64,000 nt of DNA, taken from sequence record MH791409.1, one strand, 5' to 3'. This document shows, piece by piece, positions 2,571 to 59,976 of the stretch. The stretch's first letter is position 1; each line of letters opens with the position of its first letter. The notes below the pieces were generated by a model. It was not told the origin of the DNA, did no database searches, and was given only the letters and a program-made list of their open reading frames with translations. This DNA comes from Escherichia phage EcWhh-1. The position numbers and the translations under genes were made by a program.

Positions 2571-2990
2571 TTATAGGTCTTCTAATGAGAACGTATCTTT
2601 GAAAAGTTTGTTAACAACCAGGGCTATCACATCCCCATGACAGTCCTTAGGTTTACAGGTGCACGCTATTCGCATACCTCTAAGGGTTTCAAGGTGTTCT
2701 CTTTTAATTTCACCCGATTTTATTTTAGCAATAAAGTATTCTTTAAAGTTCTTGATGTTTTCCTCACGGGTCCCATCTTTAAATGGATTACCCCACATGG
2801 TCCCGCGTTGGATATTGACATCAAAATCTTCTTTATACTTGTTAACAACTCTGCAGACTCTCATTATAACACCAAATTCAGTCCGACCATAATAACCAAA
2901 AACAGAGTACAGATTATTTGAATTTTCATACAGCCATTTTAGCCTTAATGGTAGGGTGTGATTCGTAACCAATGAGTTTAAAATCTTCAT
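2571..2990 (-). CDS. hypothetical Cys/His-containing protein; start uncertain (an internal Met at 2864 would avoid overlap with td)
   Basis: 139-aa ORF between nrdA and td; contains GNPF and CTCKPKDCHGDV motifs suggesting a small metal-binding fold; its 5' end overlaps the 3' end of td by about 65 nt if the first ATG is used. Confidence 0.45.
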   Translation of the reverse strand: MKILNSLVTNHTLPLRLKWLYENSNNLYSVFGYYGRTEFGVIMRVCRVVNKYKEDFDVNIQRGTMWGNPFKDGTREENIKNFKEYFIAKIKSGEIKREHLETLRGMRIACTCKPKDCHGDVIALVVNKLFKDTFSLEDL

Positions 2991-3785
2991 GGACCATATG
3001 CTCTGTTACCCAATGAAGCTGTAATGTCGTGCTCCAATCAGAGAATCCTTCAGGCCAATTAATTTCCAGTTCACAAAGCTCTTTAGGCTCACGACGAAGA
3101 ACTTCTTGACATTGTTCAACGTGGTTAGAATAGATGTGCGTATTGCCGCCTGAGAACACTAAATCGCCAGGAATAAGATTACACATCTTAGCTACAATAT
3201 GCACAAGAGCGGCGTAAGAGGCGATATTAAATGGCAATCCTAAGAACACGTCAACAGAACGCTGATACCACTGGAGGTCAAGATGGCCGTTACGAACGTT
3301 GAACTGGTAAAAGCAATGGCAAGGCGGAAGAGCCATCCGGTTGATTTCAGCCGGGTTCCATGCAGATACGATTTGACGACGGTCGTTAGGCATCTTTTTA
3401 ATGCGGTCGATAATTTCTACAACCTGGTCGACACCACCAAAATCTCGCCATTGTTTACCGTATACAGGACCCAGTTCGCCGCTATGATAGCCAAGGTCTT
3501 TAGCTTGGTTTTCATAGTTTTCGTCCCAAATAGTTTTACCACCAATTAATGAACCGTGAGTACGTAAACGAAGGTCGTTAACGTTTGTTGAACCCGAAAG
3601 GAACCAAAGGAGCTCAGCAATGCAGGCTTTCCATGCTAATTTTTTAGTTGTTACTGCAGGAAAGCCTTTAGTTAAATCAAAACGTAATTTAGTACCGAAC
3701 AGTGCAATTGTACCGGTGCCGGTACGGTCGTCGGTTTCGTAGCCATTTTCCAGGATATCTTTAATTAAAAATTGGTATTGTTTCA

Positions 3786-3798
<13 letters not shown>
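2926..3798 (-). CDS. td: thymidylate synthase
   Basis: 290-aa ORF with the ThyA fold signature (catalytic Cys in PCH context, FNIASY); single uninterrupted reading frame. Confidence 0.95.
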
Positions 3799-19877: not shown

Positions 19878-20531
19878 ATGGAACCAAAAGTAGGATTTTC
19901 ATTATCAGACCTACTTTTTGGACTTCTTGATAGAATTTTTAAAGATACTTCTTCCGGGAAAGTAGTTTTTTCCCGGGTCCTAGTCGTAATATTATTGTTC
20001 TTTATGGCATTAGTTTGGTATAAAGGCGAGTATATTCTAAACTTTTATAAAGAGACAACTTATGCCTCTTATACTGAAATGATTAGACAAGACCAGGACA
20101 ATAGATTTAAAATTGCGGCTATCGAGCAGCTCCGAATAGTGCATTCTTCTTCAGGCGCAGACTTCACAGCAATATATTCTTTTAGACCAACCAACATGAA
20201 TTATTTTGTGGACATGGTTGCTTATGAGGGTAAATTACCGGAAACGGTAGACGCAAAAAATACGGGAGGGTTTCCAATTGACAAAACGTCAGTAGAATAT
20301 ATGGCGGGAGTTAACGGGAACTATTTTGAATCAAGTACCGAAACTGTATTCCTTCCTACAAAGAAGAAAACACAATTCACGTATATGTTTTCATGCCCGT
20401 TTTTTAATTTGGATAACATCTATGCCGGCTCGATATCATTATATTGGTATGATATCAAACCGGATTTAGGATTTCCTAGACTTTCGTCTATGTGTGGTCA
20501 GGCTGGGAGAACATTAGGTCGAACTCGTTAA
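19878..20531 (+). CDS. t: holin T
   Basis: 217-aa ORF with one N-terminal TM segment and a large periplasmic domain; conserved YSFRP.NMNYFVDM.AYEGKLP and FLPTKK...YMFSCPFFNLDNIYAG blocks match recalled T4 holin. Confidence 0.94.
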   Translation: MEPKVGFSLSDLLFGLLDRIFKDTSSGKVVFSRVLVVILLFFMALVWYKGEYILNFYKETTYASYTEMIRQDQDNRFKIAAIEQLRIVHSSSGADFTAIYSFRPTNMNYFVDMVAYEGKLPETVDAKNTGGFPIDKTSVEYMAGVNGNYFESSTETVFLPTKKKTQFTYMFSCPFFNLDNIYAGSISLYWYDIKPDLGFPRLSSMCGQAGRTLGRTR

Positions 20532-20803
20532 AAATTGGAGGTATACATCATTAGATAACGATGTATATCTTCATACCCTTCATTAAATTGCTCAATAAGA
20601 GTATCACGTTCATCTTCAGTTAAAGACTTAAAGAGTTTATTAAAAGATAGGCCGTTAAGTTCCTTTCCATGTTCATTACGAATACCCAACTCATTCAAAA
20701 AGGCAATAAACTCATCACGGCGCTGCATGATGTCTTCACAATCCGTTTTAATCAAAATGGAAACAATAGTAGCAATTTCGGAAACGATTTCAATTTTAGT
20801 CAT
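20528..20803 (-). CDS. asiA: anti-sigma70 factor AsiA
   Basis: 91-aa ORF; IAFLNELGI...LIEQFNEGYEDIHRYLMMYT matches recalled T4 AsiA; convergent with t as in T4. Confidence 0.88.
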   Translation of the reverse strand: MTKIEIVSEIATIVSILIKTDCEDIMQRRDEFIAFLNELGIRNEHGKELNGLSFNKLFKSLTEDERDTLIEQFNEGYEDIHRYLMMYTSNF

Positions 20804-20843
20804 AATATTCTCTTCAATTCAGTACGACATTATCTGATAAGGC

Positions 20844-20872
20844 TATAATAACATATCCTTATGGATTGTAAA
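20844..20872 (-). promoter_or_regulatory. early promoter upstream of asiA
   Basis: GTTTAC-N17-TATTAT on the minus strand. Confidence 0.6.
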
Positions 20873-21106
20873 CATGTTCTTCGTTCTTTTTAACATATTC
20901 CTGATACATTTCTTCAATAGGTTCCTGGAACTTAAAATCAGCTCCTAGGAATTCCTCAAAGCACTCCTGCTCACGAGTACGCATACCTGTTACGGTATTC
21001 TCTAAGTTATGACTCATACCCTTTACCCTTATGTTTCTGCTTACGCTTGGACTCTTTAAAATTTTTCTTCTTGTCCTTATGGACCGAAGCCTTATTGAAA
21101 TCGTGC

Positions 21107-29202: not shown

Positions 29203-31413
29203 TTAAGCCGCTTCCACGGCTTTCATGAATTTAACGATTTGAGCTACAGAAGCCTCGGTAATGGATGTTCCACGACGATACATGTAGTCCGAAACTAAAT
29301 GGTAATCAGATTCAAACTGTACAGTCATTTTATCATTGTTACTTGAAGCATTATTGGTTAACGTATTGAACGTGGTGTTACAGATTTTCTTGATAACAGA
29401 AAGTTTGTCATCAGTTATATACCCATGGAAATTCATATAACGGAATATATCATAGAAATTGCTCAGACGAGTATATGCTTCAGACACCGGCTTATCACTG
29501 AAATATTTAGTCATAAAACCAAGCTCAGGGAACTTAGCAATGATTTCAAGATAATACCTTGCACGGGTATTACTACCAATATAATCATCGATATCTACAG
29601 CATCTAATGCTTCGGCATAAGCTTCTAACGTGGTTTCCATCAAGCATTCACATTGGCCCAACTTTTTAATCTTTTTGGCAATCTGAGGGCGAATGATATG
29701 GAATTCGGTAGCACCAATCAAATTAGCCATACGACACATAGTAGTGGTATTGATGTCAAAGATACCATAAGCTTCATCCATTCCCATGATATCAGAACGA
29801 CTACCAAACAATACGTACCCTGTAATTTCTTCTGCTTCTGCAGCAGTTAAGTATAAGGTCTCTTGTTGCCAACGTCCATCTTTAATGAACCAACGATAAG
29901 CACTTGGTGTTTTAGGACGAGGTTCTGATGAACGGACAGTAACCGGAATCCATGGCTTAACAATTTTATTCAGTTCAGAGACTTTATAAAAATGAATAGT
30001 ATCACCTTTAAAAAGTTCTTTAACCTTTTCAAGTTGTTGCATTTGCAGCATTGAATTTGGGTCGACAAAAATAAGGTCAGTTCCATATTTAGGAATATTG
30101 TTCTCTTTAACAATTTTCTTAGCCGAAGCACTGTTGTCCATTGCCAGAGCCCAAAGTCCTCGAACTAATGGCACACGACCCTTTTCATCATCAAAAACAA
30201 TATGGATTTCTTTATTATTAATGCCTAATAAACTACTAAGTCCTGCTACCGAAGAAGTATTACTACTTGGCTTAATTCGTTTCAAACGTGGGTCTGAAAC
30301 GATTTCGTAAACCACACCTAAATTAATAAGGTCGTTTTGAAGTGTGTAACGTTGGTATAATTTCTCATATGTCAATTTTTCTGTAGTAAACAGGCTAGTC
30401 CCACCTTTTTTGGTAAGATAGTCACGAGCACTGTAACCAAGGTTAGAAAGGTCGCGATAAACATGGCGTGGATTATCAGATTCAACCCATTCTTGTGTAT
30501 CGTTTTTAAAGACCACTGCATCCAGTGCTTCGATACGGGTTGCAATATTTTCCATCGTACGTTTATCAAGAGACAACACTTCACGAGACGGAGCAATATC
30601 CAGCGAGCCCATAGGGAACTTAATATAAACTACATCATGGCGAGTACGCATCCATGTGCCTTTATTATAAGCAGAATCCAATGGATAAACAATACCACCA
30701 TAAACTGCATAAAGTCCTGAACGTTCGAAGCTGCCATAATTTGTAGTGGTTACAGGATAGTAGTCTTCAAATTCAGGGAAATAATCAACTTCAACACCGT
30801 CAACATCACCAAGTCCAATGAACGGACGCATGATATATCGAACTTCAGTTTCAAACTTACGGAAATCTTCTTCATCGACAGGAACCGTGATTTCGATACC
30901 TGTTTTATCACCTGGCTGCATAGGTTCTACGAAAGTAGGTTTAATCTGCGGCCCATCACCATCCATATATGCCACATAACCGCGAACTTCACCATTATGC
31001 CATGAGGTAATGTTGAAAGTTTCGGTATAACTGAACGGAGATTTTGAACCAAGGCCAAAGCCACCGATGAAATCGTTAGAAGCGGTTTTGGATGATGCGA
31101 AATAAGAGTTATACAAACCGGTTTCGTTTTCATCGCCACGAATCTGGAAATCACTCATGCCTGGTCCGAAGTCACGGCACACAAAGCGAGGGTCGAGCTT
31201 ACCAGGAACCTGTACTTTCCAACGTTCTTTATTACCATTCAGAATATGAGCATCAATCATGTTGGTAATTAGTTCACGAACTACGGCACGTACCTTATTA
31301 CTATAAAGGTCTGATGAAAGAATTTTAAAGACCTTAGGCGAGGCCTGGATAGTAAATCCTGTGGACTTAGAGCCGTTGCCAATGATTTGTTCTTTTTCGG
31401 TTTCAATAATCAT
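29203..31413 (-). CDS. rIIA: rIIA protein
   Basis: 736-aa ORF immediately upstream of rIIB in the same orientation; ATPase-like N-terminal region. Confidence 0.92.
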   Translation of the reverse strand: MIIETEKEQIIGNGSKSTGFTIQASPKVFKILSSDLYSNKVRAVVRELITNMIDAHILNGNKERWKVQVPGKLDPRFVCRDFGPGMSDFQIRGDENETGLYNSYFASSKTASNDFIGGFGLGSKSPFSYTETFNITSWHNGEVRGYVAYMDGDGPQIKPTFVEPMQPGDKTGIEITVPVDEEDFRKFETEVRYIMRPFIGLGDVDGVEVDYFPEFEDYYPVTTTNYGSFERSGLYAVYGGIVYPLDSAYNKGTWMRTRHDVVYIKFPMGSLDIAPSREVLSLDKRTMENIATRIEALDAVVFKNDTQEWVESDNPRHVYRDLSNLGYSARDYLTKKGGTSLFTTEKLTYEKLYQRYTLQNDLINLGVVYEIVSDPRLKRIKPSSNTSSVAGLSSLLGINNKEIHIVFDDEKGRVPLVRGLWALAMDNSASAKKIVKENNIPKYGTDLIFVDPNSMLQMQQLEKVKELFKGDTIHFYKVSELNKIVKPWIPVTVRSSEPRPKTPSAYRWFIKDGRWQQETLYLTAAEAEEITGYVLFGSRSDIMGMDEAYGIFDINTTTMCRMANLIGATEFHIIRPQIAKKIKKLGQCECLMETTLEAYAEALDAVDIDDYIGSNTRARYYLEIIAKFPELGFMTKYFSDKPVSEAYTRLSNFYDIFRYMNFHGYITDDKLSVIKKICNTTFNTLTNNASSNNDKMTVQFESDYHLVSDYMYRRGTSITEASVAQIVKFMKAVEAA

Positions 31414-32212: not shown

Positions 32213-34033
32213 TTATGACATCCAAGCCTTACGCAGCTGTGGGTCGTTTCCAAGGAGCATTTCGAACTGGTCTTTCCAATCTTCAGGTAATTGAACTACA
32301 TCGAATTTAGGGTCTTGAATCATTCGACGGTATTCAGCCTTCTCAAGAGAACCGAGTCCTTTAATATAACGAATAGAATGCTTAGGTAGAGAGTCCTTAG
32401 CTTTGGTATAACTAGGTACATCATAGAACCATTCCTGTTCTTTACCAACCTGAGCAATGATTACAGGAGTCTTACAGAAACGAATTCGTCCCTGTTCAAA
32501 CAATTCCGGCCACTGACTAAAGAAAGCTAATAACGAAGGATAAATCGAACCAGTACCATCCACATCGGCGTCAGTCATGATAGCGATATTACGATAGTTG
32601 GTTTTATCTGCAGGTTCACCAATAACCAGTCCAGTGATTGCACAGATATCAAACAATTCTTTGTTCTTCATGATATCGGCAGCAGTCATACCCCAGGTAT
32701 TCATAACCTTTCCGCGTAACGGATAACCACCTTGGAGGTCTTTATTACGAACTTCAATGAAAGGACCCATTGCAGAATCACCTTCCGTAAGGAATAAAGT
32801 CGTATCAGCATCTTTGCCATACATATTGGCTTTAATATGCTTATGGACCTTGGCTTTCAAAGCTTTCTTAGCAGCTTTTGTTTCGGCAGCCTTTTCAGCA
32901 GCGAGCTTACGTGCTAATGCAGCCTCAATAATAGGCATCAACACAGCTTCATTAGCTAATATGGATTTAGCTAGTTTTTTAGAATCTAACTGAATATGCG
33001 AACGAATTTCACCATACGGCGATGTTAGACGTTCTTTAGTCTGGGAATCGAATCGCATATTTTTCATGCTTCGCACAAACATCAGCATCGTTAAACATTC
33101 TTTAATACGGGCTTTGGTTACTTCAATTTTAAACTTACGCTTAATTTGTGGGATAAGCTCGTCACAAATATCATCCATAACACATTCAACGTGGTGACCA
33201 CCGTTTTTAGTATGAATATTGTTCACGTACGTTAATTGTCGGAATCCATCAGGAGAGCGTCCTATAGATATCGAACAATTGTCCTGTTCTTGGATAATGC
33301 ACTCTTCGTCGAACTGTTTGGCGTATTTTTTAAACGACCCTTGGATTTTCTTACCATTAAATTTAAATTCAATATCAGGATAAATGACTGCTAAGGTTTG
33401 AAGTCGGTCAATGGTAATATCTTGATAAATTTTTTCAAATTGGTTCATTTCAAAGTGGCTAAAATCAGGTACAAATTCTACTTTGGTTCCATTAGTTTTA
33501 GATGGCTTTGATTTCCAAGAAACGTTTTCAGCGTTATTAGAGCAGTTAACAATAAGTTCAGATTTACCATCAGAAGTTGTGCCTGTAAACATCACAGAGA
33601 ATATATTTGTTAAACTGGAACCGACACCGTTTTGACCACCGGTAACACGTTCAGAGTCATCACCAAAGTTACCGCCTGCCTTGGTTTTTGTCCAAGCCGC
33701 GACGGGTCCTGGGATTTCTTCACCTTCAGGAGTAACCACTAGAGCTTGAGGAATACCACGGCCATTATCTTCTACAGTAACCTTATTAGAACTTAAATCA
33801 ATGCTTACTGAAATTTTGTTGGCAAACTTAAAATTAGTACGAATAGCTTCATCAACTGAGTTATCGATGATTTCATCAACTAATTTAAGAACACCCGCTA
33901 CATACCGTACTTTGGTAAACTCGCCGAAAAGAAATCGTTCATGGTCTTCAAATGATACACTTCCGATGTACATTCCAGGACGCTTAAGAACGTGTTCCTT
34001 ATCTGAAAGCATTTCAATTTTATTATCAATCAT
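32213..34033 (-). CDS. 39: DNA topoisomerase II large subunit gp39 (GyrB-like), full-length single ORF
   Basis: 606-aa ORF with HATPase_c and TOPRIM motifs; about 90 aa longer than T4 gp39, consistent with fusion of the gene 39 and gene 60 coding regions. Confidence 0.93.
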   Translation of the reverse strand: MIDNKIEMLSDKEHVLKRPGMYIGSVSFEDHERFLFGEFTKVRYVAGVLKLVDEIIDNSVDEAIRTNFKFANKISVSIDLSSNKVTVEDNGRGIPQALVVTPEGEEIPGPVAAWTKTKAGGNFGDDSERVTGGQNGVGSSLTNIFSVMFTGTTSDGKSELIVNCSNNAENVSWKSKPSKTNGTKVEFVPDFSHFEMNQFEKIYQDITIDRLQTLAVIYPDIEFKFNGKKIQGSFKKYAKQFDEECIIQEQDNCSISIGRSPDGFRQLTYVNNIHTKNGGHHVECVMDDICDELIPQIKRKFKIEVTKARIKECLTMLMFVRSMKNMRFDSQTKERLTSPYGEIRSHIQLDSKKLAKSILANEAVLMPIIEAALARKLAAEKAAETKAAKKALKAKVHKHIKANMYGKDADTTLFLTEGDSAMGPFIEVRNKDLQGGYPLRGKVMNTWGMTAADIMKNKELFDICAITGLVIGEPADKTNYRNIAIMTDADVDGTGSIYPSLLAFFSQWPELFEQGRIRFCKTPVIIAQVGKEQEWFYDVPSYTKAKDSLPKHSIRYIKGLGSLEKAEYRRMIQDPKFDVVQLPEDWKDQFEMLLGNDPQLRKAWMS

Positions 34034-50319: not shown

Positions 50320-50633
50320 CTCTTAGATTTAATTTTATCCAGTTCTTCTTGTATTTGCATTGTAACACATTTTTCTACATGAAGCGCTAGCTCTTCTTTT
50401 CGGTCTTCGGAAGGTGTTCCGAAATCAACCGACACTTTTCCATCTTTCTCAATAACAATATTCATCACATAAACGATGTGAGCAGTGCCATCGGGTAAAG
50501 TAAGCATAATTTCCTGCTTAACAGAACCCATTGACTTACGGATTATATCTAATGATTTCTCATAATAACGAGGGTCACTAGGACCCTCTTCGGTATCTTT
50601 AACAAAATTATCTAAATCAGATAAATCAGTCAT
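50304..50633 (-). CDS. 40: gp40-position protein (head assembly factor)
   Basis: 109-aa ORF between uvsX and 41 as in T4; assignment mainly by position. Confidence 0.6.
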   Translation of the reverse strand: MTDLSDLDNFVKDTEEGPSDPRYYEKSLDIIRKSMGSVKQEIMLTLPDGTAHIVYVMNIVIEKDGKVSVDFGTPSEDRKEELALHVEKCVTMQIQEELDKIKSKRWWKW

Positions 50634-51807
50634 GGTCGCTCACAAAATTCATGTTTTCTAAATCGCTTTCGATGTCAGCAGCGCTTTGGGTATTTCCACC
50701 TAATTTAACAGAAACGTTCTTAGAGACACGAGAGTTAATAAGGTCGTTCACTGCATCGTCAACTTCTTTAATAGAATTAATTGCACCGAGCTTATACTTA
50801 TTCTCGATTGCTTCACGGAACGGAGCATGTTTAAACAGTGGTCCCCAGAACTCAACACAATCGGTAGCTTTAGCACGCCATGCTTTTTCTTCTTGAACCA
50901 TTTCACCTGTGGTTTCGTCAAGGAATGCACGATTATACCACCCAGCTTTAGGTTTCACGACAAAGCCGATATCAGTAGCCATTTCAAGCAATCCACTGAA
51001 TGGGTCGATACCGCCTTCAAAGTTAACGGTGATAGGGAACGTTGACTTCTCTTTAACCGTACGAGATTTCTCAGCCTTAAGTGTGAAGTCATAACCAGTG
51101 AGCTCAGTACCATCTTTAACCTGGCGTTTAGAGATAAAGAACACGGTAGAAGCAGAGTACAGAATACCAGTACCACCACCCATAATCTCTTTAGGATACA
51201 TTCCACCAATTTCCATAGCCGTGTGGTTAATTGCTACACAAGGGATATCCTTGATGGTCAGATAAGGTGTTACGATACGGAACAGAGATTTCAGTGACTT
51301 AGCACGAGTCATATCACCTACAACTTTCTCGTTCAAAGCATCTTCGGTTTCTTTCTTAGAAGCAGTGTTACCAATGGAGTCGATAAAGATAATAACCTTT
51401 TCGCCACGAGTAATTTCTTCTAACTGGTTGGTCATATCAACTTTAAGCTGTTCGACTGACTGGATTGGTGTATGAACCACACGTTCCAAATCAACACCCA
51501 TCGAACGGAAATAAGATTCTGAAGCACCGAACTCAGAGTCATAGAACAAGCAAATTGCGTCTGGATATTTCTTCATATATGCCGCAACCATAGTTAATCC
51601 AAACAACGTTTTAAAGTGTTTAGACGGTGCAGCAAAGATTGTCAAACCTGATTGTAAGCCTGCATTCAACGCACCACCCAATGCAATATTAAGCATAGGA
51701 ATACGAGTAGGAACTTCGTCACGACCATTAAACAATTTAGATTTGGTCAGGTCGGCAGTCATTTTAGAAGTAGAAGCTTTAATCAAACGGGATTTTAAAT
51801 CAGACAT
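50626..51807 (-). CDS. uvsX: RecA-like recombinase UvsX
   Basis: 393-aa ORF; MSDLKSRLIKASTSK... nearly identical to recalled T4 UvsX over long stretches. Confidence 0.96.
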   Translation of the reverse strand: MSDLKSRLIKASTSKMTADLTKSKLFNGRDEVPTRIPMLNIALGGALNAGLQSGLTIFAAPSKHFKTLFGLTMVAAYMKKYPDAICLFYDSEFGASESYFRSMGVDLERVVHTPIQSVEQLKVDMTNQLEEITRGEKVIIFIDSIGNTASKKETEDALNEKVVGDMTRAKSLKSLFRIVTPYLTIKDIPCVAINHTAMEIGGMYPKEIMGGGTGILYSASTVFFISKRQVKDGTELTGYDFTLKAEKSRTVKEKSTFPITVNFEGGIDPFSGLLEMATDIGFVVKPKAGWYNRAFLDETTGEMVQEEKAWRAKATDCVEFWGPLFKHAPFREAIENKYKLGAINSIKEVDDAVNDLINSRVSKNVSVKLGGNTQSAADIESDLENMNFVSDHD

Positions 51808-51884: not shown

Positions 51885-52016
51885 TTACTTAATTCCTCGG
51901 TTGATAGCCTTATCGACTATCTTCCGAACTTCTCGTTTCTCGAGCCACACTAATAATAGCAAGCCTCCGAAAGAGAATAATAACAAACCTATAAAAAGCA
52001 ATAGAGGACCTAGCAT
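51885..52016 (-). CDS. 43-aa hydrophobic peptide
   Basis: Translation MLGPLLLFIGLLLFSFGGLLLLVWLEKREVRKIVDKAINRGIK; start overlaps the stop of the upstream gene. Confidence 0.45.
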   Translation of the reverse strand: MLGPLLLFIGLLLFSFGGLLLLVWLEKREVRKIVDKAINRGIK

Positions 52017-52903
52017 ACTACGTCCTCATAACGTGGCATTTCGTATTCAGAATGAATATTGGCACCGAAATAAATGAATTCAGCCAGACCAGGATGGAAT
52101 ACTAAACCTGGGTTCTCATGATAAATGATATGTGGTCTTGATTTCAGAATTTGATAATATTCAACCTTACTCGGTTTGAATTTAATAATCTCTACATCAG
52201 GACGATAGTCTTCGCGCTTAAATGAATCATTAGGGTCGGTGATATAAAGACGAGCACCTTCAGCGGCAGCTTGGTCTACAACTCTTTCGAATTGATAACA
52301 CTTATCCGAAATACGGAATGGATGGAAAATACCATCAATTTTAATAGGCGCTAGACCTTCAGAGTAACGCTCAATTACTGCAGGATTAATTACCTTTTGG
52401 TCTACAAAAATCTTATCAGAGGATGCACCTCGTGACATCAGGACGTCTTTCTGGCATTGATTCAAGACTGTAGTATAAAGTGAACGTTCAACTGAAGCCA
52501 CATCAATATCAATGAACTCGTCGATATAATAACGAGGAACTTCAGGGTCCATTGTGATATTAAAGTTGAATTGTACAGTATGAGCACCATCATAACCGGT
52601 GATATCGGTCACCAGTCCTGAGCAATCATAGTATTCGATTAGTGAATCGACTACAAACTCATTTTCAGACCAGAAATGTTTACGGGTTTCATAAGCATTT
52701 TCTTTATACCAAAGTGGTACGAAATTCAGTTCTGGGAATAATTCAATGCATTCTTTGATATCGCTCGAATTTCTAGGATAAGCCAGATAATCACCTGGAC
52801 GAGCACGATTTAAATGGAGTTGAAAATTACCGTCCTTAAGGACGGCATATTCACCTGTTTCGTAACTACGCATACTGAAAATAGGAACGATAAACAAACT
52901 CAT
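52010..52903 (-). CDS. hypothetical protein in the T4 bgt position; candidate DNA-modification transferase
   Basis: 297-aa ORF, translationally coupled to the upstream hydroxymethylase; no motif I can assign by eye. Confidence 0.5.
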   Translation of the reverse strand: MSLFIVPIFSMRSYETGEYAVLKDGNFQLHLNRARPGDYLAYPRNSSDIKECIELFPELNFVPLWYKENAYETRKHFWSENEFVVDSLIEYYDCSGLVTDITGYDGAHTVQFNFNITMDPEVPRYYIDEFIDIDVASVERSLYTTVLNQCQKDVLMSRGASSDKIFVDQKVINPAVIERYSEGLAPIKIDGIFHPFRISDKCYQFERVVDQAAAEGARLYITDPNDSFKREDYRPDVEIIKFKPSKVEYYQILKSRPHIIYHENPGLVFHPGLAEFIYFGANIHSEYEMPRYEDVVC

Positions 52904-53598
52904 TTCAGGAAACCTCGGACGTAGTCAAAATCACGTTCAAACACGTGTGCACTTACCATGGTGTGGGAATATGTACCTAAACCGACACCACACTGTTCAG
53001 CAATAAATGCCATCAGTTTACCCTGCAGATAGAAATCCAGCTGCATAACAACGGCGCAGTTTTGTGAACGCATATGAGTGTGTGCATACAGACGTCCATC
53101 ACGAATATAATATGTTACCGAATCGGTACACGGATATTCTAGGGATTCGTCAGAATCAAGGAGGGCTTGGTCTTGTTCTTGGAGAATTTGGAACACAACT
53201 CGTCTCGAGTTAGGCTTTTCTTTAAGCTCTTTAAGTAGGGCTGGGAGTTGGGCCACAATTCGAGGGCCATAGAAAGTGTTGAAGTTTGCAGGCAATACGT
53301 CACTTTTCGGCTTATCAATGAACTTAGCAACATTAGGGTATTCCTTAAATGCTTCGGCAGCGTCAGTACCACCAGAAATCATAAATTTCCAAAAGGATTC
53401 GGCATATTCATAACTAATACGATTGATACGTGGGTCGGTGAATTTATAGGTGCTTGCATCCAGTACTTCTACCGAAGCAGAACCAATTTCATAACAACGT
53501 CCGATACGAGAATCAACTGCAAACTGTGGAGCTTCCAGGATTTCTTCGTTCATTTGTTTAAATGCATTTTCAAAACTAACAGCGGTAATGTGTTTCAT
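52900..53598 (-). CDS. 42: pyrimidine hydroxymethylase of the thymidylate-synthase family, dCMP-hydroxymethylase-like (gp42 homologue)
   Basis: 232-aa ORF; SRR, PCTD (catalytic Cys), YYIRD and MRS blocks align with recalled T4 gp42; Asp 31 residues after the Cys (QLDFY), where thymidylate synthases carry Asn. Confidence 0.8.
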   Translation of the reverse strand: MKHITAVSFENAFKQMNEEILEAPQFAVDSRIGRCYEIGSASVEVLDASTYKFTDPRINRISYEYAESFWKFMISGGTDAAEAFKEYPNVAKFIDKPKSDVLPANFNTFYGPRIVAQLPALLKELKEKPNSRRVVFQILQEQDQALLDSDESLEYPCTDSVTYYIRDGRLYAHTHMRSQNCAVVMQLDFYLQGKLMAFIAEQCGVGLGTYSHTMVSAHVFERDFDYVRGFLK

Positions 53599-54131
53599 TT
53601 ATTCACCTTATTTTCAATATATTCGTTCAGACGTTTTAATTCTACCATATCAACATTAAGCAAATTATTATGGCCGTCATGATTTAAGATTTTAAACACG
53701 TTTTCAAAACATGTTTCGTATTGCCGGATAGTTAGGTTGAACTCATCTTTGGTTAATTTAATAAGGTCGTCTTCGAAGTCTTCGTCTAATGGATTGCGAG
53801 TTAAAATAACCTCGATAACGTTAAATTCGGATTTAAACCCTTTCCAATCTTCCAGTTCTACATAAGGGTCCATTTCACCACGAAGGAATCCTGAGTAAAC
53901 AATATTACTTGGATAACCACGGTCAAGGATATAAACGAAATTAGGGTCTAAAAACTTATACAGAGTTTCAACTAAAGCCTTATCGTTATCAGTTCCTAAT
54001 GAAATACACTTGCCATTAATCTTTTTAGGAAAATCAATAAGGCGGTATTTCTTATTGGATAACAGATTTTTAATTAAAGTGGACTTCCCGGAATTATCCG
54101 GGCCGTCTATAACAATGATTTTTGGATTCAT
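53595..54131 (-). CDS. P-loop kinase (nucleotide/nucleoside-kinase-like)
   Basis: 178-aa ORF with N-terminal Walker A IVIDGPDNSGKST. Confidence 0.65.
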   Translation of the reverse strand: MNPKIIVIDGPDNSGKSTLIKNLLSNKKYRLIDFPKKINGKCISLGTDNDKALVETLYKFLDPNFVYILDRGYPSNIVYSGFLRGEMDPYVELEDWKGFKSEFNVIEVILTRNPLDEDFEDDLIKLTKDEFNLTIRQYETCFENVFKILNHDGHNNLLNVDMVELKRLNEYIENKVNK

Positions 54132-54526
54132 GGATGATAGGCCTTATAACTATCAAGAGTTCCTTCACGAACCATTTCTTTAAAGTGGTCAGGACGGATT
54201 GCTCGGTCATCGATGATAAAAGTATAACTCGGCTTATGCGTAAGCAGATTATGATATTTCAATCCAATCTTTTCAAGGTTCTTAACCAATGCAGGAACTA
54301 CTTCAACCAAGATTCGACCTGGGCCACATGAAGTCATGCCACGGGCAGTGAATAATGTAATCTCGTACCCTTCATCATAAAGCTTATTAATCATGGACAC
54401 CATTTCGGTGTCCGGTTTAAAGTTCTCATAATCACGGTCATGGTTCCAAATCGTGATTGTGTTATCGATATCAAAACATAAATGTGGCTTATTTTCTACT
54501 CGATGCGACATTAAATTTTCTTCCAT
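54128..54526 (-). CDS. HAD-superfamily phosphatase (small, capless)
   Basis: 132-aa ORF with motif I CFDIDNTIT (DxDxT) and C-terminal IIDD motif IV. Confidence 0.7.
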   Translation of the reverse strand: MEENLMSHRVENKPHLCFDIDNTITIWNHDRDYENFKPDTEMVSMINKLYDEGYEITLFTARGMTSCGPGRILVEVVPALVKNLEKIGLKYHNLLTHKPSYTFIIDDRAIRPDHFKEMVREGTLDSYKAYHP

Positions 54527-56184
54527 TGTTTGTGGAGTTCAGTAGAACCTGTAGGTTTATATTTTACACCAGTTTCCTGGTCAAGCAAAACCCACTTATC
54601 AGGACAACGAGTAATAATTTGAGCCGTGATAGGGTCACGAACTTCATCGACAAATTCACCAGTAATAAGCTTACGCTTATGAGGATGCCGCTTCAGCAGC
54701 ACACTCAGTTGATACAAACCGTTATAATAAGCACCCAGAGCTTTCAGAGGGTTATTCTTAAAGTAACCTGCCAGCGCCATCCAAATAACAGCAATCCAGA
54801 GCTTGTGCTTAAATGTGCACATAGGAATATCGTCTAAAGGCATAACCTTTTCGATATCAACGAATACACGAGTTCCGTTACGAGTTAATCCACCCCATAG
54901 AGGGTCTGAGTTAAATTTGTCATAGCCATCGATAGAATAAAGCACCTTAGCTTCATCATAAATCGCAGGGCCTTTAGAACTATTACCGAAATAACCACGT
55001 GGGTCGATGATTTTAATATCACCTTCGTCCGACAGCATAATATTACTGTAGTGCGGGTCGCCATGAATAAGTTGGTACGGTTCTTTATGTTCAGACAGAA
55101 TTTCTAGTGCATGGCGGAGAAGTTTTTCGGGGTCGCCTACTTTGAAATCGTTAACATAGGTAATGCCCTGTGGAGCAAAGCCTTCAATCAATCCGGCAAT
55201 AGAAGCATTACGAATAAGGACCTTGTCCAACACTTCTTTCTTAACATCGGAATACCATTGCTCATCGGACGGGTTATCGATAGTTCCACCGAATGAACGT
55301 AATGCACTAATGACCTTATAAACCATGAGGACTTTAGTTTCTTTGGACATAAACCGGTAGGCATCTGCCATGGTACGACCAAAGATACGTTCCATTTTAA
55401 TGAATTCGCCTGGAGAAAAGTCTACAATGCTAGGAACGAATTCAGAATCAATAGAATTATACCAATTGATTTCTTTAGATTGAATTTCTTTACCTAATTC
55501 GTTAGTTGGTACTTTAATAGCCAGATTCTCGGTGAACTCTAATTTATTAAATTCACGGTTAATTTCAGAATCTTCATGGGCCTTGGCAAGTTTCAATTTG
55601 TCACCGACATCAACTACAAAATCCAGTTTACGTTCAGTCAAATAGACCATTGAATCCAGGTTATCAGCAAGGTCTTCGCCATAATTAGAACGGTCGAAAC
55701 CTGTCCAATTGGCTACCTGATACAAACCAACTACACCGCCACCGGTACCAATTTCACGTAAGTACGGTTCTTCAAATGTAAAGCGACAGTCAGTTCCATA
55801 GGTATAACAATAGTCGTTACCCCATTCAACTTTATGACCGATAGGAATGATGTCACACCAGTTAAACAGGACATTATGGCCAATGATATCTTCGGCAATG
55901 CAATCGATAGCATGAGCTGAACCATTAGCAACATCAACGTTACGAATAGTGAATTTAGGCTTATCACCAGTAATCATGTTAATGGATTTAATATAGCCTT
56001 TAACGAGGTCGTTAAATTTGCTGTGAATAACCAGAATAATTTCATCTGATTGGTTACTATACAAATCATACAAATGTTTTAATACCGTATGTTGTTTGTA
56101 GTTAACCAATACCTTTGGGATTTCGTTAGTAATTGGATACAACCGTGAGCCAAGACCTGCGCCTAAAATAACAACCTTTTTCAT
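54511..56184 (-). CDS. bifunctional protein: N-terminal sugar-1-phosphate nucleotidyltransferase domain fused to C-terminal APH/choline-kinase-like kinase domain
   Basis: N-terminus MKKVVILGAGLGSRLYPITNEIPKVLV matches the RmlA/GlmU G-x-G-x-R-L-Y-P-I-T...PK signature; C-terminal region has Brenner motif LIHGDPHYSNIML plus IIDPRGY. ORF-track start is 56214; the ATG at 56184 has a GAGGAA RBS. Confidence 0.75.
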   Translation of the reverse strand: MKKVVILGAGLGSRLYPITNEIPKVLVNYKQHTVLKHLYDLYSNQSDEIILVIHSKFNDLVKGYIKSINMITGDKPKFTIRNVDVANGSAHAIDCIAEDIIGHNVLFNWCDIIPIGHKVEWGNDYCYTYGTDCRFTFEEPYLREIGTGGGVVGLYQVANWTGFDRSNYGEDLADNLDSMVYLTERKLDFVVDVGDKLKLAKAHEDSEINREFNKLEFTENLAIKVPTNELGKEIQSKEINWYNSIDSEFVPSIVDFSPGEFIKMERIFGRTMADAYRFMSKETKVLMVYKVISALRSFGGTIDNPSDEQWYSDVKKEVLDKVLIRNASIAGLIEGFAPQGITYVNDFKVGDPEKLLRHALEILSEHKEPYQLIHGDPHYSNIMLSDEGDIKIIDPRGYFGNSSKGPAIYDEAKVLYSIDGYDKFNSDPLWGGLTRNGTRVFVDIEKVMPLDDIPMCTFKHKLWIAVIWMALAGYFKNNPLKALGAYYNGLYQLSVLLKRHPHKRKLITGEFVDEVRDPITAQIITRCPDKWVLLDQETGVKYKPTGSTELHKQWKKI

Positions 56185-56244
56185 TATCTGTTCCTCAAGT
56201 GAATGTAGGTACATTATACACTATTTTTAATAAATTTCTATTGC

Positions 56245-56752: not shown

Positions 56753-56890
56753 TCAATTAAAACAGTTATACTTAATTTGTGCTATAAGAATAATCCATCC
56801 CATGATTAATGTTGGAATCATTGGAGGAATTGCCACTGCCCAATAAACGGTAAAGGCAGCCATTATAAGAAATAAAATAATTATCTTCAT
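56753..56890 (-). CDS. 45-aa hydrophobic peptide
   Basis: Translation MKIIILFLIMAAFTVYWAVAIPPMIPTLIMGWIILIAQIKYNCFN; ATG overlaps the imm stop. Confidence 0.45.
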   Translation of the reverse strand: MKIIILFLIMAAFTVYWAVAIPPMIPTLIMGWIILIAQIKYNCFN

Positions 56891-57186: not shown

Positions 57187-59898
57187 TTAAAAGTCGAACA
57201 TATCAAATAATGTTGCTTTTTTCTCGTAGTCGATTTTAGCAGACTCGGTAAAACCAGTTAGAGGCTTGATAAAGGTCTTTTGGAACAGTACGTTGTAGTC
57301 CATCCAACGGAGGACTTGGTCACGAATCTGAACTGGGAGTTCAATACCTGACGGCCATGCCATACAGGCTTCACCAAACGGGTTGCCTTCTTTAAGTGGC
57401 AGTACATATACCTTTTCACCGTCAACGATACGAGGCATAGTCAAATCACCAGCAGAAGCACGCATGTAAGCTAAGCAACCTTTGATGTGGTACGGGCATT
57501 TAGAACCAGGGAATCCGCCTTCATTATATTTCTCGATGTTGTTAGCACTGGATACTGCTGCAATGCTTACATAGTCCAGTTCGTTAAATTCCTTATTAAA
57601 CTGTTTGAAATATTCTTGCAAAGACGCCTCGCCTTCTTGAAGCATACGACGGATACATTCTTTCAGAGCTTTCTGAACAGCTTTAGGTGTACTTGATTTC
57701 TGAGTTTCGAGACCCATGATTTTCAAGTGTGGTTCGGCATAACGAGTGCCTTCCATGTCCCAAACGTTCAGTGCATAACGTTTCTTGCCTGTCCAGAATC
57801 CACCAAGACCTTTAGAACCAAGTGGAGGACCTGCGATAGCTTCTCGGTCCATGAACATCAAGTGTTGTTTGTTGTTCATGTATTCGCACATCTCACGGAA
57901 GCCTGCATCAATAGTCGGTTCCATACGTTCACGTGCAAATTTATCTAAGAAGTCGACCCAGTGGTTAGTGTCACGGAATTTATCTTCGCCTACTTTATTG
58001 ATGATTGCATCTGCCTTAACATAAATGGAGTCAGTATCACCATAGAGCACGAACTTCTGGTTTTCAGTCTTACACACGCTATTCAGATATTCGTTAACCT
58101 TACGTTCAATCCATTGGAGAGCCATTTGACCAAACAGTGTGATTGCAGTTGCGTTCCTGAGGTCGTAATAACGAAACCATACGTTACCAAGTGCACCATA
58201 AAGGGAGTTGATAAGCAACTTACGGTTAATCTGAGCAGTGTTACCTGCAACTTCGGTACGTTCAGCTCTGAACAACATTTCTTTTAAAGAAGAGGCCGAC
58301 AGTTTTTTAATCTGGGCTTTTATTTCATCAGAGAAGTCGAAACGGTAATCGATATCCAGTGGACTATCAACAGACAGATTAGGATTTTCCAATGCTTCTT
58401 TAATTAACTCGCCATTACGTTGGGCTGCAAGCATATAACCTTTATGTTCTTTACGTTGTAAGAACACCTTCGTGATTTCTGTAGGAATCACACCATCACG
58501 GTCTTTATAGTACATCATGCCGTTAGGAGAGCAACTGTAGGTGTCGCTAGGACGCGGAGCAGTTCCGGCAATATATTCATGTATCGGTGCGTTGGCGAAT
58601 GTGCCTGCGATGGTCTCTGGGCTTATATTCACTTGTCGAATGATACTCGGGTACAGAGATGTAAGGTCGAAACTCATTACATATTTGTACGCGTTAGGAA
58701 TAGGTTCCTTAACGAAAGCACCTGGATAAGGTTGAACCGCATGCGATTTGGCCTGAGGAATAACTTTACCCTGTTCTTTAAGGCTATTAAAGATAATAGC
58801 GTCCCAAGTCTTAATTGGACTGAACACCGACTGAATCTGCATCTTAGCATAATAACCCATGTCCAGACTAAGAAGAATGAACTGGCGTTTCATATCAATC
58901 TGCACAACACGATATACGTCGATAATGTTATAGGAAATATATCGTTGGTGGTTCGTCTCACGTAACTTGGAGATAGGACCATCATATTTCAACTTACCTA
59001 CTTTCAATTCATATTCAGAAACATAATCCAGAGAATAAGAAGGCTGGTTAGTAAAGCTGAATTTTTTATAAAGGTCGATATAATCCAGAACAGAGATACC
59101 GAACAGTGTAATAATTTCGCGAACACCGTACATATTCTCGATAACTTTAACACGAGTCTTACGATGTGGGCTTAATCGCTTAGCAGTGTTCTCACCAAAC
59201 AGATTTTTCAGACGGTTATAAACGTATGGCACGTCAAATGATTCAACGTTCCATCCAGTCAAAATCACAGGAGTTTTCTGTTGCCAGAAATTCAGATACT
59301 CAAGCATCATTTCTTCTTCAGAATTAAACGGAAGATAAACGATTTTGTCAATGATTTCTTGTGGAACTTCGTCACCACCTTCGTCTTGGAGTTTCTCAGC
59401 GATTTTAATCGACCACTCTTCGACCGTACCATAAGGTGAAACTAAAAGGTCAAATACATAGAATTTATCATCAATCGAGTCGTAGTGAGTAATGGCATCG
59501 ATAGGATGTTTAGCCTGGGCAGGTTCAGGGAATCCATCAGGGGATGTTACCTCGATGTCGAAGTTAGCAATACGAATCTTGGAAGAATCATACTTGATTT
59601 CTTTACGATAGGTATCAGACAAATAGGCTAATTTATAGTCGTCCATACCAAGGGCTTCGAGACCCATATCGTCCATGCGCTTCATCCACTGAGAAGCATC
59701 GCGCATTGAATCGAATTCTTTCTTAACACAACCCTTACCGTAGATGTCAATATATTTTACGGCTTGCTCTGGGTTAGCGTGCATAAACATTGTAGGCTTG
59801 TAAGGAACTTCACGACTACGTTCGTTACCATTTTTATCGATGTAACGTTCGAGAATATTATCACCGATTTGTTCGACTGTCAAATAGAATTCTTGCAT
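57187..59898 (-). CDS. 43: DNA polymerase gp43 (family B)
   Basis: Exo and pol motifs (FDIEV, YGDTDS, KILINSLYGALG); start taken at MQEFYLTVEQIGDN (ATG 59898), matching recalled T4/RB69 gp43 N-termini; the ORF track extends 20 codons further upstream. Confidence 0.95.
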   Translation of the reverse strand: MQEFYLTVEQIGDNILERYIDKNGNERSREVPYKPTMFMHANPEQAVKYIDIYGKGCVKKEFDSMRDASQWMKRMDDMGLEALGMDDYKLAYLSDTYRKEIKYDSSKIRIANFDIEVTSPDGFPEPAQAKHPIDAITHYDSIDDKFYVFDLLVSPYGTVEEWSIKIAEKLQDEGGDEVPQEIIDKIVYLPFNSEEEMMLEYLNFWQQKTPVILTGWNVESFDVPYVYNRLKNLFGENTAKRLSPHRKTRVKVIENMYGVREIITLFGISVLDYIDLYKKFSFTNQPSYSLDYVSEYELKVGKLKYDGPISKLRETNHQRYISYNIIDVYRVVQIDMKRQFILLSLDMGYYAKMQIQSVFSPIKTWDAIIFNSLKEQGKVIPQAKSHAVQPYPGAFVKEPIPNAYKYVMSFDLTSLYPSIIRQVNISPETIAGTFANAPIHEYIAGTAPRPSDTYSCSPNGMMYYKDRDGVIPTEITKVFLQRKEHKGYMLAAQRNGELIKEALENPNLSVDSPLDIDYRFDFSDEIKAQIKKLSASSLKEMLFRAERTEVAGNTAQINRKLLINSLYGALGNVWFRYYDLRNATAITLFGQMALQWIERKVNEYLNSVCKTENQKFVLYGDTDSIYVKADAIINKVGEDKFRDTNHWVDFLDKFARERMEPTIDAGFREMCEYMNNKQHLMFMDREAIAGPPLGSKGLGGFWTGKKRYALNVWDMEGTRYAEPHLKIMGLETQKSSTPKAVQKALKECIRRMLQEGEASLQEYFKQFNKEFNELDYVSIAAVSSANNIEKYNEGGFPGSKCPYHIKGCLAYMRASAGDLTMPRIVDGEKVYVLPLKEGNPFGEACMAWPSGIELPVQIRDQVLRWMDYNVLFQKTFIKPLTGFTESAKIDYEKKATLFDMFDF

Positions 59899-59930
59899 TT
59901 CATTTCCTTTATAGACGAGTGATTGTCTTT
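59899..59930 (-). promoter_or_regulatory. candidate gp43 autogenous translational operator
   Basis: Minus-strand hairpin AGAC-AAUCACUC-GUCU (8-nt loop) immediately 5' of the gene 43 RBS AAGGAAA. Confidence 0.5.
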
Positions 59931-59952
59931 TGTTTGTTGATGAATCATTATA

Positions 59953-59976
59953 CTCCAAAAAGGGACTTCGGTCCCT
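59953..59976 (-). terminator. terminator hairpin between the regA-proximal ORF and gene 43
   Basis: Minus-strand AGGGAC-CGAA-GUCCCU followed by UUUUUGG, then a TATAAT hexamer. Confidence 0.6.

Follow-up and report, generated by a model that had tools for sequence, protein, structure and literature searches.

Why would a T4-like phage keep a second nucleotide kinase, one that resembles thymidylate kinases, beside a gene-1-type kinase that is active on 5-hydroxy-dCMP? This is the main point of interest raised by two small genes of Escherichia phage EcWhh-1 (MH791409.1), from which a stretch of 64,000 nucleotides was analysed (hereafter, the window). The initial annotation had described them as a 178-aa Walker-A kinase and a 132-aa capless HAD phosphatase embedded in a DNA modification operon, and we confirmed both the coordinates and the motifs of the two open reading frames. 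The window comes from a JS98-like Dhakavirus, a T4-like coliphage: the region is 98–99.5% identical in DNA to Dhakaviruses, and JS98 matches the window at 98% identity across a 4.3-kb region. Conservation of the HAD and kinase genes across hundreds of phages (387 and 343 phage records, respectively, from >10 host genera, with kinase identities of 35–100%) shows that they are real genes and not chance open reading frames. Both lie in a five-gene operon with stop/start overlaps, listed here in operon order after a small open reading frame that precedes it:

56756–56863, minus strand: small conserved open reading frame upstream of the operon, homologous to RB69 gp54 (tblastn, 53% identity, E-value 6e-11)
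54511–56214, minus strand: AfhE-like bifunctional enzyme, 567 aa (Pfam domains; HY126 and RB69 matches)
54128–54526, minus strand: predicted capless HAD phosphatase, 132 aa (127 aa from the ATG at 54511), ortholog of HY126 AfhF and RB69 gp51
53595–54131, minus strand: putative P-loop nucleotide kinase with a thymidylate-kinase fold, 178 aa, ortholog of RB69 gp45, DLP3 gp78 and HY126 XAN60473
52900–53598, minus strand: predicted 5-hydroxy-dCMP synthase of the ThyA superfamily (PDB 9iqu/9iqc; RSQN motif)
52010–52903, minus strand: putative first DNA arabinosyltransferase (GT1), 297 aa, ortholog of RB69 gp46:47

The HAD/kinase and kinase/synthase junctions are both ATGA overlaps, and a scan of the operon for promoters and terminators gave nothing above chance. 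All of RB69 gp45, 46:47, 48, 51, 52:53 and 54 have orthologs in the window, where we found no phage arabinose-5-phosphate isomerase, no U32-like gene, and no second arabinosyltransferase of either the RB69 gp3 type or the Acinetobacter-phage type.

The ThyA homolog identifies the pathway. This protein has RSQN at the site of RSCD in E. coli ThyA and of RSND in T4 gp42, which places an Asn at the D169 position, and its catalytic Cys (C146) is invariant. It matches PDB 9iqu/9iqc with an E-value of 1.7e-126 and shares 80% identity with both RB69 gp48 and the HY126 enzyme. Lee et al. (PMC13326640) describe both the D169N signature and the 5-hydroxy-dCMP synthase activity, which has been shown experimentally for the RB69 and HY126 orthologs and depends on flavin and O2. 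Judged by these sequence features, the protein is a 5-hydroxy-dCMP synthase and not the dCMP hydroxymethylase that it was initially taken for; replacing the label ‘hydroxymethylase’ is of practical use for the annotation of this window. Given the D169N signature and the 80% identity to the RB69 and HY126 enzymes, the operon is an arabinosyl-5-hydroxycytosine DNA hypermodification pathway, already known from publications of 2025–2026; Dhakaviruses are among the phages listed as carrying the cluster (Lee et al., PMC13326640). We consider it fairly probable that both small genes are components of this operon in a Dhakavirus, in the roles proposed for each below. Arabinosylated 5-hydroxycytosine in phage DNA blocks many restriction enzymes, phage DNA modifications are treated in the cited literature as protection against CRISPR-Cas as well, and the pathway is therefore of relevance to phage therapy and to the engineering of T4-like phages.

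The two genes at the ends of the operon conform to the same pathway. The AfhE-like enzyme has an N-terminal Pfam NTP_transferase domain (3.4e-8, residues 13–110) and a C-terminal APH domain (1.3e-5, residues 356–427), both above cutoff, and it aligns over its full length with HY126 XAN60479 (42.5% identity, E-value 5e-142), with RB69 gp52:53 matched too. By its domain content, it is a fusion of a sugar-1-phosphate nucleotidyltransferase and an APH-type kinase, predicted to yield UDP-arabinofuranose, the function given for HY126 AfhE in the account available in PMC13326640. GT1 is 65–69% identical to RB69 gp46 and gp47 and 67% identical to the HY126 protein, matches phrog_3891, and is homologous to gp215 of phage RL38J1 (E-value 4e-10); Pfam and PDB sequence searches returned no match for it. 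The arabinosyltransferase role of its orthologs is inferred in PMC13326640.

The HAD protein retains all four HAD motifs: D19-I-D21-N-T23 (I), T60 (II), K98 (III) and D106-D107 (IV). Motif I is kept in RB69 gp51, HY126 AfhF and PDB 1xpj, motifs II–IV are invariant in the alignments, and a length of 127–132 aa leaves no space for a cap domain. The translation start is probably the ATG at 54511 rather than the first ATG at 54526: the former forms a TAATG overlap with the upstream stop codon, has GGAAG upstream, and yields an N-terminus in agreement with the HY126 and RB69 proteins, whereas no Shine-Dalgarno-like sequence precedes the latter. Matches to curated models stayed below their cut-offs (Hydrolase_3, 12.5 bits against 20.9; TIGR01662, 22.4 against 44.6; TIGR01689, E-value 1.3e-14 and 54.3 bits against 162). 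Homologs were more informative: the protein is 62% identical to HY126 AfhF across 125 residues, it matches PDB 9iqw_A with an E-value of 5.3e-54 (HY126 XAN60478 and the aligned part of 9iqw have the same sequence), its identity to RB69 gp51 is likewise 62%, with no change in any HAD motif, and it matches PDB 1xpj at an E-value of 4.5e-12. With HY126 AfhF, RB69 gp51 and DLP3 gp81, it shares length, catalytic motifs and a position after the AfhE-like fusion; its gene directly follows the AfhE-like gene here as it does in HY126, RB69, Kimel and 22 of 24 IMG/VR loci. The genomic settings differ in three respects. The window is from the genus Dhakavirus, whereas AfhF and RB69 gp51 are from Mosigvirus; the next gene is the kinase, whereas in those systems it is a U32-like gene or the synthase; and, unlike in the HY126, RB69 and DLP3 systems, no phage arabinose-5-phosphate isomerase accompanies the HAD gene.

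In the account of He et al. (2026) given in PMC13326640, the kinase domain of AfhE phosphorylates arabinose-5-phosphate at C1, and HY126 AfhF then strips the 5-phosphate from the resulting arabinofuranose-1,5-bisphosphate to leave arabinofuranose-1-phosphate. At 62% identity to HY126 AfhF, the window protein is very likely an AfhF-type arabinofuranose-1,5-bisphosphate 5-phosphatase. RefSeq calls it a ‘phosphoheptose isomerase’, and renaming it as a HAD sugar-bisphosphate phosphatase would improve its annotation. Such a route would resemble ADP-heptose synthesis, in which the product of the GmhA isomerase passes through the HldE kinase, the GmhB HAD phosphatase and the HldE adenylyltransferase. 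In each, phosphorylation of a sugar phosphate at C1 is followed by loss of the distal phosphate through a small HAD enzyme, after which the second domain of a bifunctional enzyme attaches the nucleotide, but there the sugar is a heptose, the kinase is of ribokinase type and the carrier is ADP, whereas here they would be a pentofuranose, an APH-type kinase and UDP. Membership of the HAD protein in the GmhB family is not detectable by sequence.

It is very unlikely that the HAD enzyme instead acts first, releasing free arabinose from arabinose-5-phosphate for C1 phosphorylation by the kinase domain of the fusion enzyme. Table 1 of PMC13326640 does carry the label ‘dephosphorylates Araf5p to Ara’, the preprint of Lee et al. 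proposed the free-arabinose route, and sequence alone does not separate the two candidate substrates. The text of PMC13326640, however, settles on the bisphosphate route because of the biochemistry of HY126 AfhE and AfhF as it is presented there; that route mirrors the HldE/GmhB logic, and the window protein shares 62% of its residues with AfhF. The initial suggestion of a sugar-phosphate phosphatase that feeds the fusion enzyme thus stands, but not the part that had it release a free sugar ahead of the anomeric kinase, as AfhF acts after that step. Nothing supported the other suggestion made for it, a dNMP phosphatase.

Combined with the remaining genes, this gives a pathway with two branches. 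The ThyA homolog would hydroxylate dCMP to 5-hydroxy-dCMP (the activity shown in the 80%-identical orthologs), a nucleotide kinase would convert this to the diphosphate and host NDP kinase to the triphosphate, and the phage polymerase would incorporate it. The sugar branch would begin with host arabinose-5-phosphate, since the phage encodes no isomerase of its own. The C-terminal kinase domain of the fusion enzyme would phosphorylate this sugar at C1, the HAD enzyme would take off the 5-phosphate, and the N-terminal domain of the fusion would convert arabinofuranose-1-phosphate to UDP-arabinofuranose, from which the 297-aa glycosyltransferase would transfer arabinofuranose to 5-hydroxycytosine.

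Assignment of the nucleotide-kinase step is less straightforward. The kinase is a full-length homolog of RB69 gp45, DLP3 gp78 and HY126 XAN60473, with the invariant motifs and a thymidylate-kinase-like fold in common, and its gene lies between the HAD and synthase genes, whereas in RB69-type clusters it follows the glycosyltransferase gene, by uvsX. It is 38–39% identical to RB69 gp45 over residues 2–169 (E-value 4e-31), matches phrog_761 at 1.5e-39, and has the Walker A sequence GPDNSGKST at residues 10–18. A profile of its family matched YorR (2.5e-12) and the thymidylate kinases (TMPKs) of yeast, Aquifex and vaccinia (1e-9 to 3e-8), in alignments that span the family-invariant GxDxxGK(S/T)T and D70-R71-x3-S75-N76-x2-Y79. 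The family has the TMPK fold, with the P-loop and the DRxxxSxxxY acceptor motif present, although the Foldseek TM-scores of the kinase are only ~0.55. In TMPKs, this motif and the P-loop Asp bind the monophosphate and 3'-OH of the mononucleotide. The protein scores below the curated thresholds of PF02223 (15.6 bits against 27) and TIGR00041 (18.3 against 83.25). Since Pfam and NCBIfam thus gave only sub-threshold matches for both small proteins, we assigned them through orthologs, profiles and fold; the HMM-based family assignment envisaged in the initial annotation failed at the curated thresholds, but these other comparisons placed both proteins.

Three features set the kinase family apart from its relatives. 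It is ~20 residues shorter from the FPK motif to helix 3 than TMPKs (PF02223, TIGR00041) and SPbeta YorR (PDB 2axp/3kb2), it has an invariant F-x-D-D after strand 4 that distinguishes it from TMPKs, and it has an acidic residue where the Arg of the FSANRW motif of yeast TMPK aligns. In the HMMER alignment, which is of low similarity in this stretch, that Arg falls on family position 50, occupied by Asp in 22/43 and by Glu in 13/43 cases. In TMPKs, this Arg reads thymine O4. An acidic residue at this position, as placed by the low-similarity alignment, would fit a cytosine base.

Several observations tie the kinase to the nucleotide side of the pathway. Among 50,697 phage records, its 343 hits come close to those of the synthase (345) and GT1 (352), with 387 for the HAD gene, whereas the isomerase was matched in only 276. 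In 22/24 close IMG/VR loci, the synthase, GT1, HAD and AfhE genes are all within 8 kb of the kinase gene. The association extends to Rhizobium phage RL38J1 (Pootjesviridae), the DNA of which has been described as containing hexosylated 5-hydroxycytosine: its gene order is synthase, glycosyltransferase and TMPK-like kinase, the kinase matches our family profile with 91.6% probability (E-value 8e-7), and no arabinose genes were found in the 14 kb read. The one complete-genome exception to the co-occurrence of kinase and synthase is Morganella phage MP1, where inspection of 145 of the 163 kb recovered the kinase gene but none for a synthase, GT1, HAD protein or AfhE.

We infer, with about even confidence, that the 178-aa kinase is a deoxynucleoside-monophosphate kinase that makes the diphosphate of 5-hydroxy-dCMP or of a near derivative. 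The candidate modified dNMP is 5-hydroxy-dCMP rather than hm-dCMP because the ThyA homolog is predicted to be a 5-hydroxy-dCMP synthase; the dedicated hm-dNMP kinase of the initial annotation is accordingly best retained as a modified-dNMP kinase with a different substrate. In supplying DNA synthesis with a modified dCMP, the protein would then act like the phage kinase of T4 gene 1, but it resembles T4 gp1 (PDB 1dek) neither in sequence nor closely in structure. Lee et al. (PMC13326640) list the kinase of the cluster only computationally, as ‘Nucleotide kinase’, and the kinases that they co-expressed differ between the preprint (gp45/gp78) and the published version (gp159/gp169). The T4 map had led to the remark that gene 1 is located elsewhere, and this proved correct: JS98 retains gene 1 between 57A and 3, so that the kinase of the operon is additional to the gene-1 kinase, and we rejected a replacement of gene 1. 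The product of JS98 gene 1 has no significant similarity to the window kinase. In vitro, RB69 gp159, a kinase of the gene-1 type, produces the diphosphate from 5-hydroxy-dCMP (PMC13326640). With gp159 capable of this step and gene 1 present in JS98, another kinase for 5-hydroxy-dCMP would look redundant.

Redundancy is one candidate explanation: the kinase could be a general dNMP kinase, acting on, for instance, dTMP or 5-hydroxy-dCMP to boost flux, and perhaps a dispensable passenger of the locus. We regard this as unlikely. In its favour are the thymidylate-kinase fold, the presence of the gene-1-type kinase, the variable position of the gene within the cluster, its retention by MP1 without the rest of the pathway (over the portion of that genome examined), and its divergence, as no other protein of the cluster has diverged as far or evolves as fast (the Dhakavirus and Mosigvirus kinases are 38% identical, the synthases 80%). 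Against it, the gene closely tracks the synthase: among the 50,697 records, it occurs in 343 and the synthase in 345, and the counts per genus are also nearly equal, being identical in six host genera. The family is also tiny, comprising 62 clusters among 1.84 billion representatives in an exhaustive search (a word-indexed protein search gave 9 relatives), and the acidic residue aligned at low similarity with the FSANRW Arg would count against this reading too.

That the kinase serves a glycosylated mononucleotide (arabinosyl-5-hydroxy-dCMP, for instance) instead of the 5-hydroxy-dCMP that we favour is quite unlikely. GT1 would add the first sugar before replication, the kinase would take a bulky product beyond the reach of a gene-1-type kinase, and the glycosylated dCTP analogue would be incorporated. 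The order synthase, GT1, kinase is common to most Straboviridae loci and to the unrelated RL38J1, both groups retain a separate gene-1-type dNMP kinase, and 5-hydroxy-dCMP itself is already handled by RB69 gp159. Single glycosyltransferases were inactive on 5-hydroxycytosine DNA, and the data of Lee et al. (PMC13326640) do not distinguish whether the first arabinosylation hits the mononucleotide or DNA. If true, this scheme would account for three observations: that inactivity, the ability of the gene-1-type kinase to handle 5-hydroxy-dCMP already, and the retention by two unrelated phage families of a gene-1-type kinase together with a GT1-adjacent one. Against it, the sugar joins hydroxymethylcytosine after replication in T-even phages, and the third arabinose is added on DNA (Lee et al., PMC13326640). 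MP1 also has the kinase with no GT1 found in its examined portion, and the kinase gene does not adjoin GT1 in Dhakavirus or in the Klebsiella-phage and Proteus-phage types.

Another role raised initially, that of a DNA kinase, is highly improbable. The protein would then be a nucleobase kinase like the 5-hydroxymethyluracil DNA kinases (5-HMUDKs), acting in the polymer on 5-hydroxycytosine or on a sugar hydroxyl. The 5-HMUDKs of thymidine-hypermodifying phages are likewise P-loop kinases of small size, found in phages alongside ThyA homologs, and some distant relatives of the window kinase carry a fused HhH-GPD or UDG domain of DNA-glycosylase-like type. Nevertheless, M6 gp54, the one characterized 5-HMUDK in our comparison, aligns with the family profile over only 27 columns, all of them in the P-loop (hhalign), and the window kinase retains the fold of thymidylate kinases together with the DRxxxSxxxY motif and P-loop Asp, which in TMPKs bind a mononucleotide. 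Moreover, a glycosyltransferase that uses a UDP-sugar requires no activated acceptor, and no phosphorylated base has been reported in RB69 or DLP3 DNA. The sugar kinase also suggested initially found no support and is rejected by the thymidylate-kinase fold, the motifs, and the synteny in RL38J1 without arabinose genes (over the 14 kb read).

Beyond these close homologs, the linkage of the kinase to ThyA-family genes recurs. The scan for related loci was built on a 12-sequence kinase alignment, and three of the contigs with distant relatives (P0012, P0031 and P0057) are, at 0.7–1.6 kb, too short for gene context. At ~20 distant kinase loci, a ThyA-family gene is located 0.5–3 kb downstream, and one distant metagenomic relative is itself a fusion of the kinase with a ThyA homolog.

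The source phage, a T4-like coliphage, belongs to the genus Dhakavirus, and the 4.3 kb of DNA surrounding its P-loop kinase and HAD genes are 99.5 per cent identical to phage UP19 and 98 per cent identical to JS10 and JS98. Five closely spaced minus-strand genes lie between uvsX and the DNA polymerase gene.

Features of the window discussed here
2929-3786, minus strand: canonical thymidylate synthase (td), 47 per cent identical to E. coli ThyA
29206-31413: rIIA
32216-34033: topoisomerase gene 39
50626-51807: uvsX
52010-52903, minus strand: 297-aa protein without a family match (putative first glycosyltransferase, GT1)
52900-53598, minus strand: ThyA homolog, 232 aa
53595-54131, minus strand: P-loop kinase, 178 aa
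54128-54526, minus strand: HAD protein, 132 aa
54511-56214, minus strand: nucleotidyltransferase/APH-kinase fusion (AfhE-like), 567 aa
56245-56745, minus strand: ORF of 166 aa between imm and the fusion gene; N-terminus lipoprotein-like, MKKLIIAMSMLLSGC; no family match found
56756-56863, minus strand: 36-codon ORF, homolog of RB69 gp54, adjoining the 166-aa ORF
57187-59958: DNA polymerase

An ATGA overlap of stop and start codons marks both the HAD/kinase and the kinase/synthase junction, the HAD gene likewise overlaps the fusion gene at the latter's stop, and a consensus scan found no promoters or terminators above chance within the block, which is a single translationally coupled operon. 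Both ORFs described in the initial annotation are confirmed, and so are their motifs (kinase, GPDNSGKST; HAD protein, DIDNT, T60, K98, and D106-D107). That observation is real and was sensibly read; the system was already published in 2025–2026, and the remaining interest lies in the purpose of the second kinase alone.

The adjoining ThyA homolog had been taken for a hydroxymethylase, an assignment that its sequence contradicts. Its RSQN motif corresponds to RSCD in E. coli ThyA and RSND in T4 gp42, and this D169N change is the mark of dCMP-hydroxylating enzymes, whose product is 5-hydroxy-dCMP (Lee et al., NAR 2026, PMC13326640); these bind a flavin and take the oxygen from O2 (PMC13326640). 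The protein is 80 per cent identical to the RB69 and HY126 5-hydroxy-dCMP synthases and matches PDB 9IQU/9IQC (E 1.7e-126). Because the window encodes td as well, this phage carries a pair of ThyA-superfamily genes that differ in chemistry; database labels for the gene at 52900-53598 are often thymidylate synthase or dCMP hydroxymethyltransferase. RB69-like phages were originally reported to have DNA modified with arabosyl-hmC (Thomas et al. 2018). Their base is now established as 5-hydroxycytosine with ether-linked arabinose. Dhakaviruses are among the genera with the cluster (PMC13326640), and orthologs of RB69 gp45, gp46:47, gp48, gp51, gp52:53, and gp54 are all in the window, in which gp49, the U32-like gp50, and the arabinose-5-phosphate isomerase gp55 were not found.

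Judged by sequence, the HAD enzyme has an ortholog that is characterized both structurally and biochemically. The HAD protein matches PDB 9IQW (E 5.3e-54), the aligned portion of which is identical to HY126 XAN60478, and it is 62 per cent identical to the HY126 protein; the assignment is based on orthology because the window protein does not reach the curated HAD sub-family thresholds. Its translation more likely begins with the ATG at 54511, giving 127 aa, in view of the TAATG overlap with the upstream stop, a GGAAG upstream, and the matching N-termini of homologs. According to PMC13326640, which reports the work of He et al. (2026), HY126 AfhE phosphorylates arabinose-5-phosphate at C1; AfhF, a Mg-dependent HAD enzyme, takes off the 5-phosphate, and UDP-arabinofuranose is finally produced by the AfhE N-terminal domain. 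The suggestion that the HAD protein is a sugar-phosphate phosphatase supplying the fusion enzyme thus stands, but its order of steps does not, since AfhF acts after C1 phosphorylation. The same step logic is shared by the ADP-heptose pathway (HldE, GmhB). RefSeq and PHROG (phrog_1238) name the HAD gene 'phosphoheptose isomerase', which in RefSeq is a misnomer, and some GenBank records have 'capsule biosynthesis protein'. In approximately 40 cyanophage and marine-phage records, a HAD protein of 36–38 per cent identity adjoins a nucleotidyltransferase and a carbohydrate kinase, a neighborhood that may be an analogous sugar-activation module.

The kinase is a recognized member of the cluster with a predicted function. 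Its orthologs RB69 gp45, HY126 XAN60473, and DLP3 gp78 are 38–39 per cent identical to it over the full length, and the cluster kinases have been entered, from structure searches, only as "Nucleotide kinase" (PMC13326640). With 62 clusters at E 1e-3 out of 1.84 billion representatives, the family is very small. Its profile matches YorR (2.5e-12) and the yeast, Aquifex, and vaccinia thymidylate kinases (1e-9 to 3e-8), in alignments that traverse the invariant motif D70-R71-x3-S75-N76-x2-Y79. At the position aligned, weakly, with the yeast thymidylate kinase Arg that we take to be the thymine-reading residue, 35 of the 43 family members have Asp or Glu; an acidic residue there would suit the amino group of cytosine, which is only a lead. 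JS98 keeps a T4-type gene 1 at the usual location, and that gene is unrelated in sequence to the window kinase; the latter is therefore an addition and not a replacement.

Across 50,697 phage records, matches numbered 343 for the kinase, 345 for the synthase, 352 for GT1, 387 for the HAD protein (the surplus being cyanophages and marine phages), and 276 for the isomerase, with identical counts for Escherichia (176), Acinetobacter (57), Shigella (15), Enterobacter (9), Proteus (7), and Yersinia (6). All four partners (synthase, GT1, HAD protein, and AfhE-like fusion) lie within 8 kb of the kinase in 22 of 24 close IMG/VR loci, and a ThyA-family gene is immediately downstream in approximately 20 distant kinase loci. 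Rhizobium phage RL38J1 (Pootjesviridae), whose base is galactosyl/glucosyl-5-hydroxycytosine, has the order synthase, glycosyltransferase, and thymidylate kinase-like kinase, with a separate dNMP kinase close by; no arabinose genes were found within the 14 kb examined. Its synthase is 32 per cent identical to that of the window and shares the RSQN motif, its glycosyltransferase is homologous to the window enzyme (E 4e-10), and its kinase matches the family profile (91.6 per cent probability, E 8e-7). Among four distant metagenomic fusions (P0057, P0042, P0043, and P0071), the partner of the kinase is a ThyA homolog bearing Asp at the D169 position in one, an HhH-GPD glycosylase-like domain in two, and a UDG-superfamily domain in one; in P0043, the kinase domain matches the same Straboviridae kinases and nine Xanthomonas phage records. 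The co-occurrence, the RL38J1 synteny, and the ThyA fusion and neighbors tie the kinase to the base and nucleotide side of the pathway and not to sugar activation.

RB69 gp159, a gene-1-type kinase, converts 5-hydroxy-dCMP to the diphosphate (PMC13326640), and a second kinase for this step therefore looks redundant. The Figure 3 legend of the preprint gives the co-expressed "cognate dNMP kinases" as RB69 gp45 and DLP3 gp78 (bioRxiv 10.1101/2025.06.16.659550), whereas that of the published version gives the gene-1-type RB69 gp159 and DLP3 gp169 (PMC13326640). Because of this redundancy and mismatch, together with the ambiguous stage of arabinosylation, Morganella phage MP1, and the HhH-GPD and UDG fusions, we put the chance that the kinase acts on 5-hydroxy-dCMP or a close derivative at roughly even. 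A redundant or general dNMP kinase is unlikely beside such close co-occurrence with the synthase. The authors could not say if it is the mononucleotide or the DNA that receives the first arabinose, and lone glycosyltransferases were without activity on 5-hydroxycytosine DNA (PMC13326640); a kinase for a glycosylated mononucleotide would fit the former route and seems slightly less probable again. Action at the DNA level, which the glycosylase-like fusion partners might evoke, is very improbable, the match to the characterized 5-hmdU DNA kinase M6 gp54 being confined to the P-loop.

MP1 (Gualtarvirus, NC_031020) has a thymidylate-kinase-like kinase at 20500-21030, between polymerase and uvsX. 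A reading of 145 of its 163 kb found no synthase, gp42-type enzyme, GT1, HAD protein, or AfhE, and the only ThyA-type gene there is a canonical td. MP1 also has a gene-1-type kinase and DenB-like and Alc-like genes.

The Dhakavirus locus differs from the published archetypes. The kinase is preceded by the HAD gene in Dhakavirus, a related Klebsiella-phage type, and a Proteus-phage type, but by the glycosyltransferase in RB69, HY126, Acinetobacter phages, Thanatos, and RL38J1. Dhakaviruses and the Klebsiella-phage type also lack the phage isomerase, which RB69 has as gp55, and presumably use arabinose-5-phosphate from host KdsD/GutQ; for the isomerase and the U32-like gp50 missing from window positions 1-64000, the comparison is RB69 locus L001:7964-8599. 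A second arabinosyltransferase, of the RB69 gp3 or the extra Acinetobacter-phage glycosyltransferase type, was not found in the window, where the gap from rIIA to gene 39 is only approximately 800 bp. This is a hint of mono-arabinosylation, the state seen in Thanatos (PMC13326640), and EcWhh-1 may add a single arabinose only.
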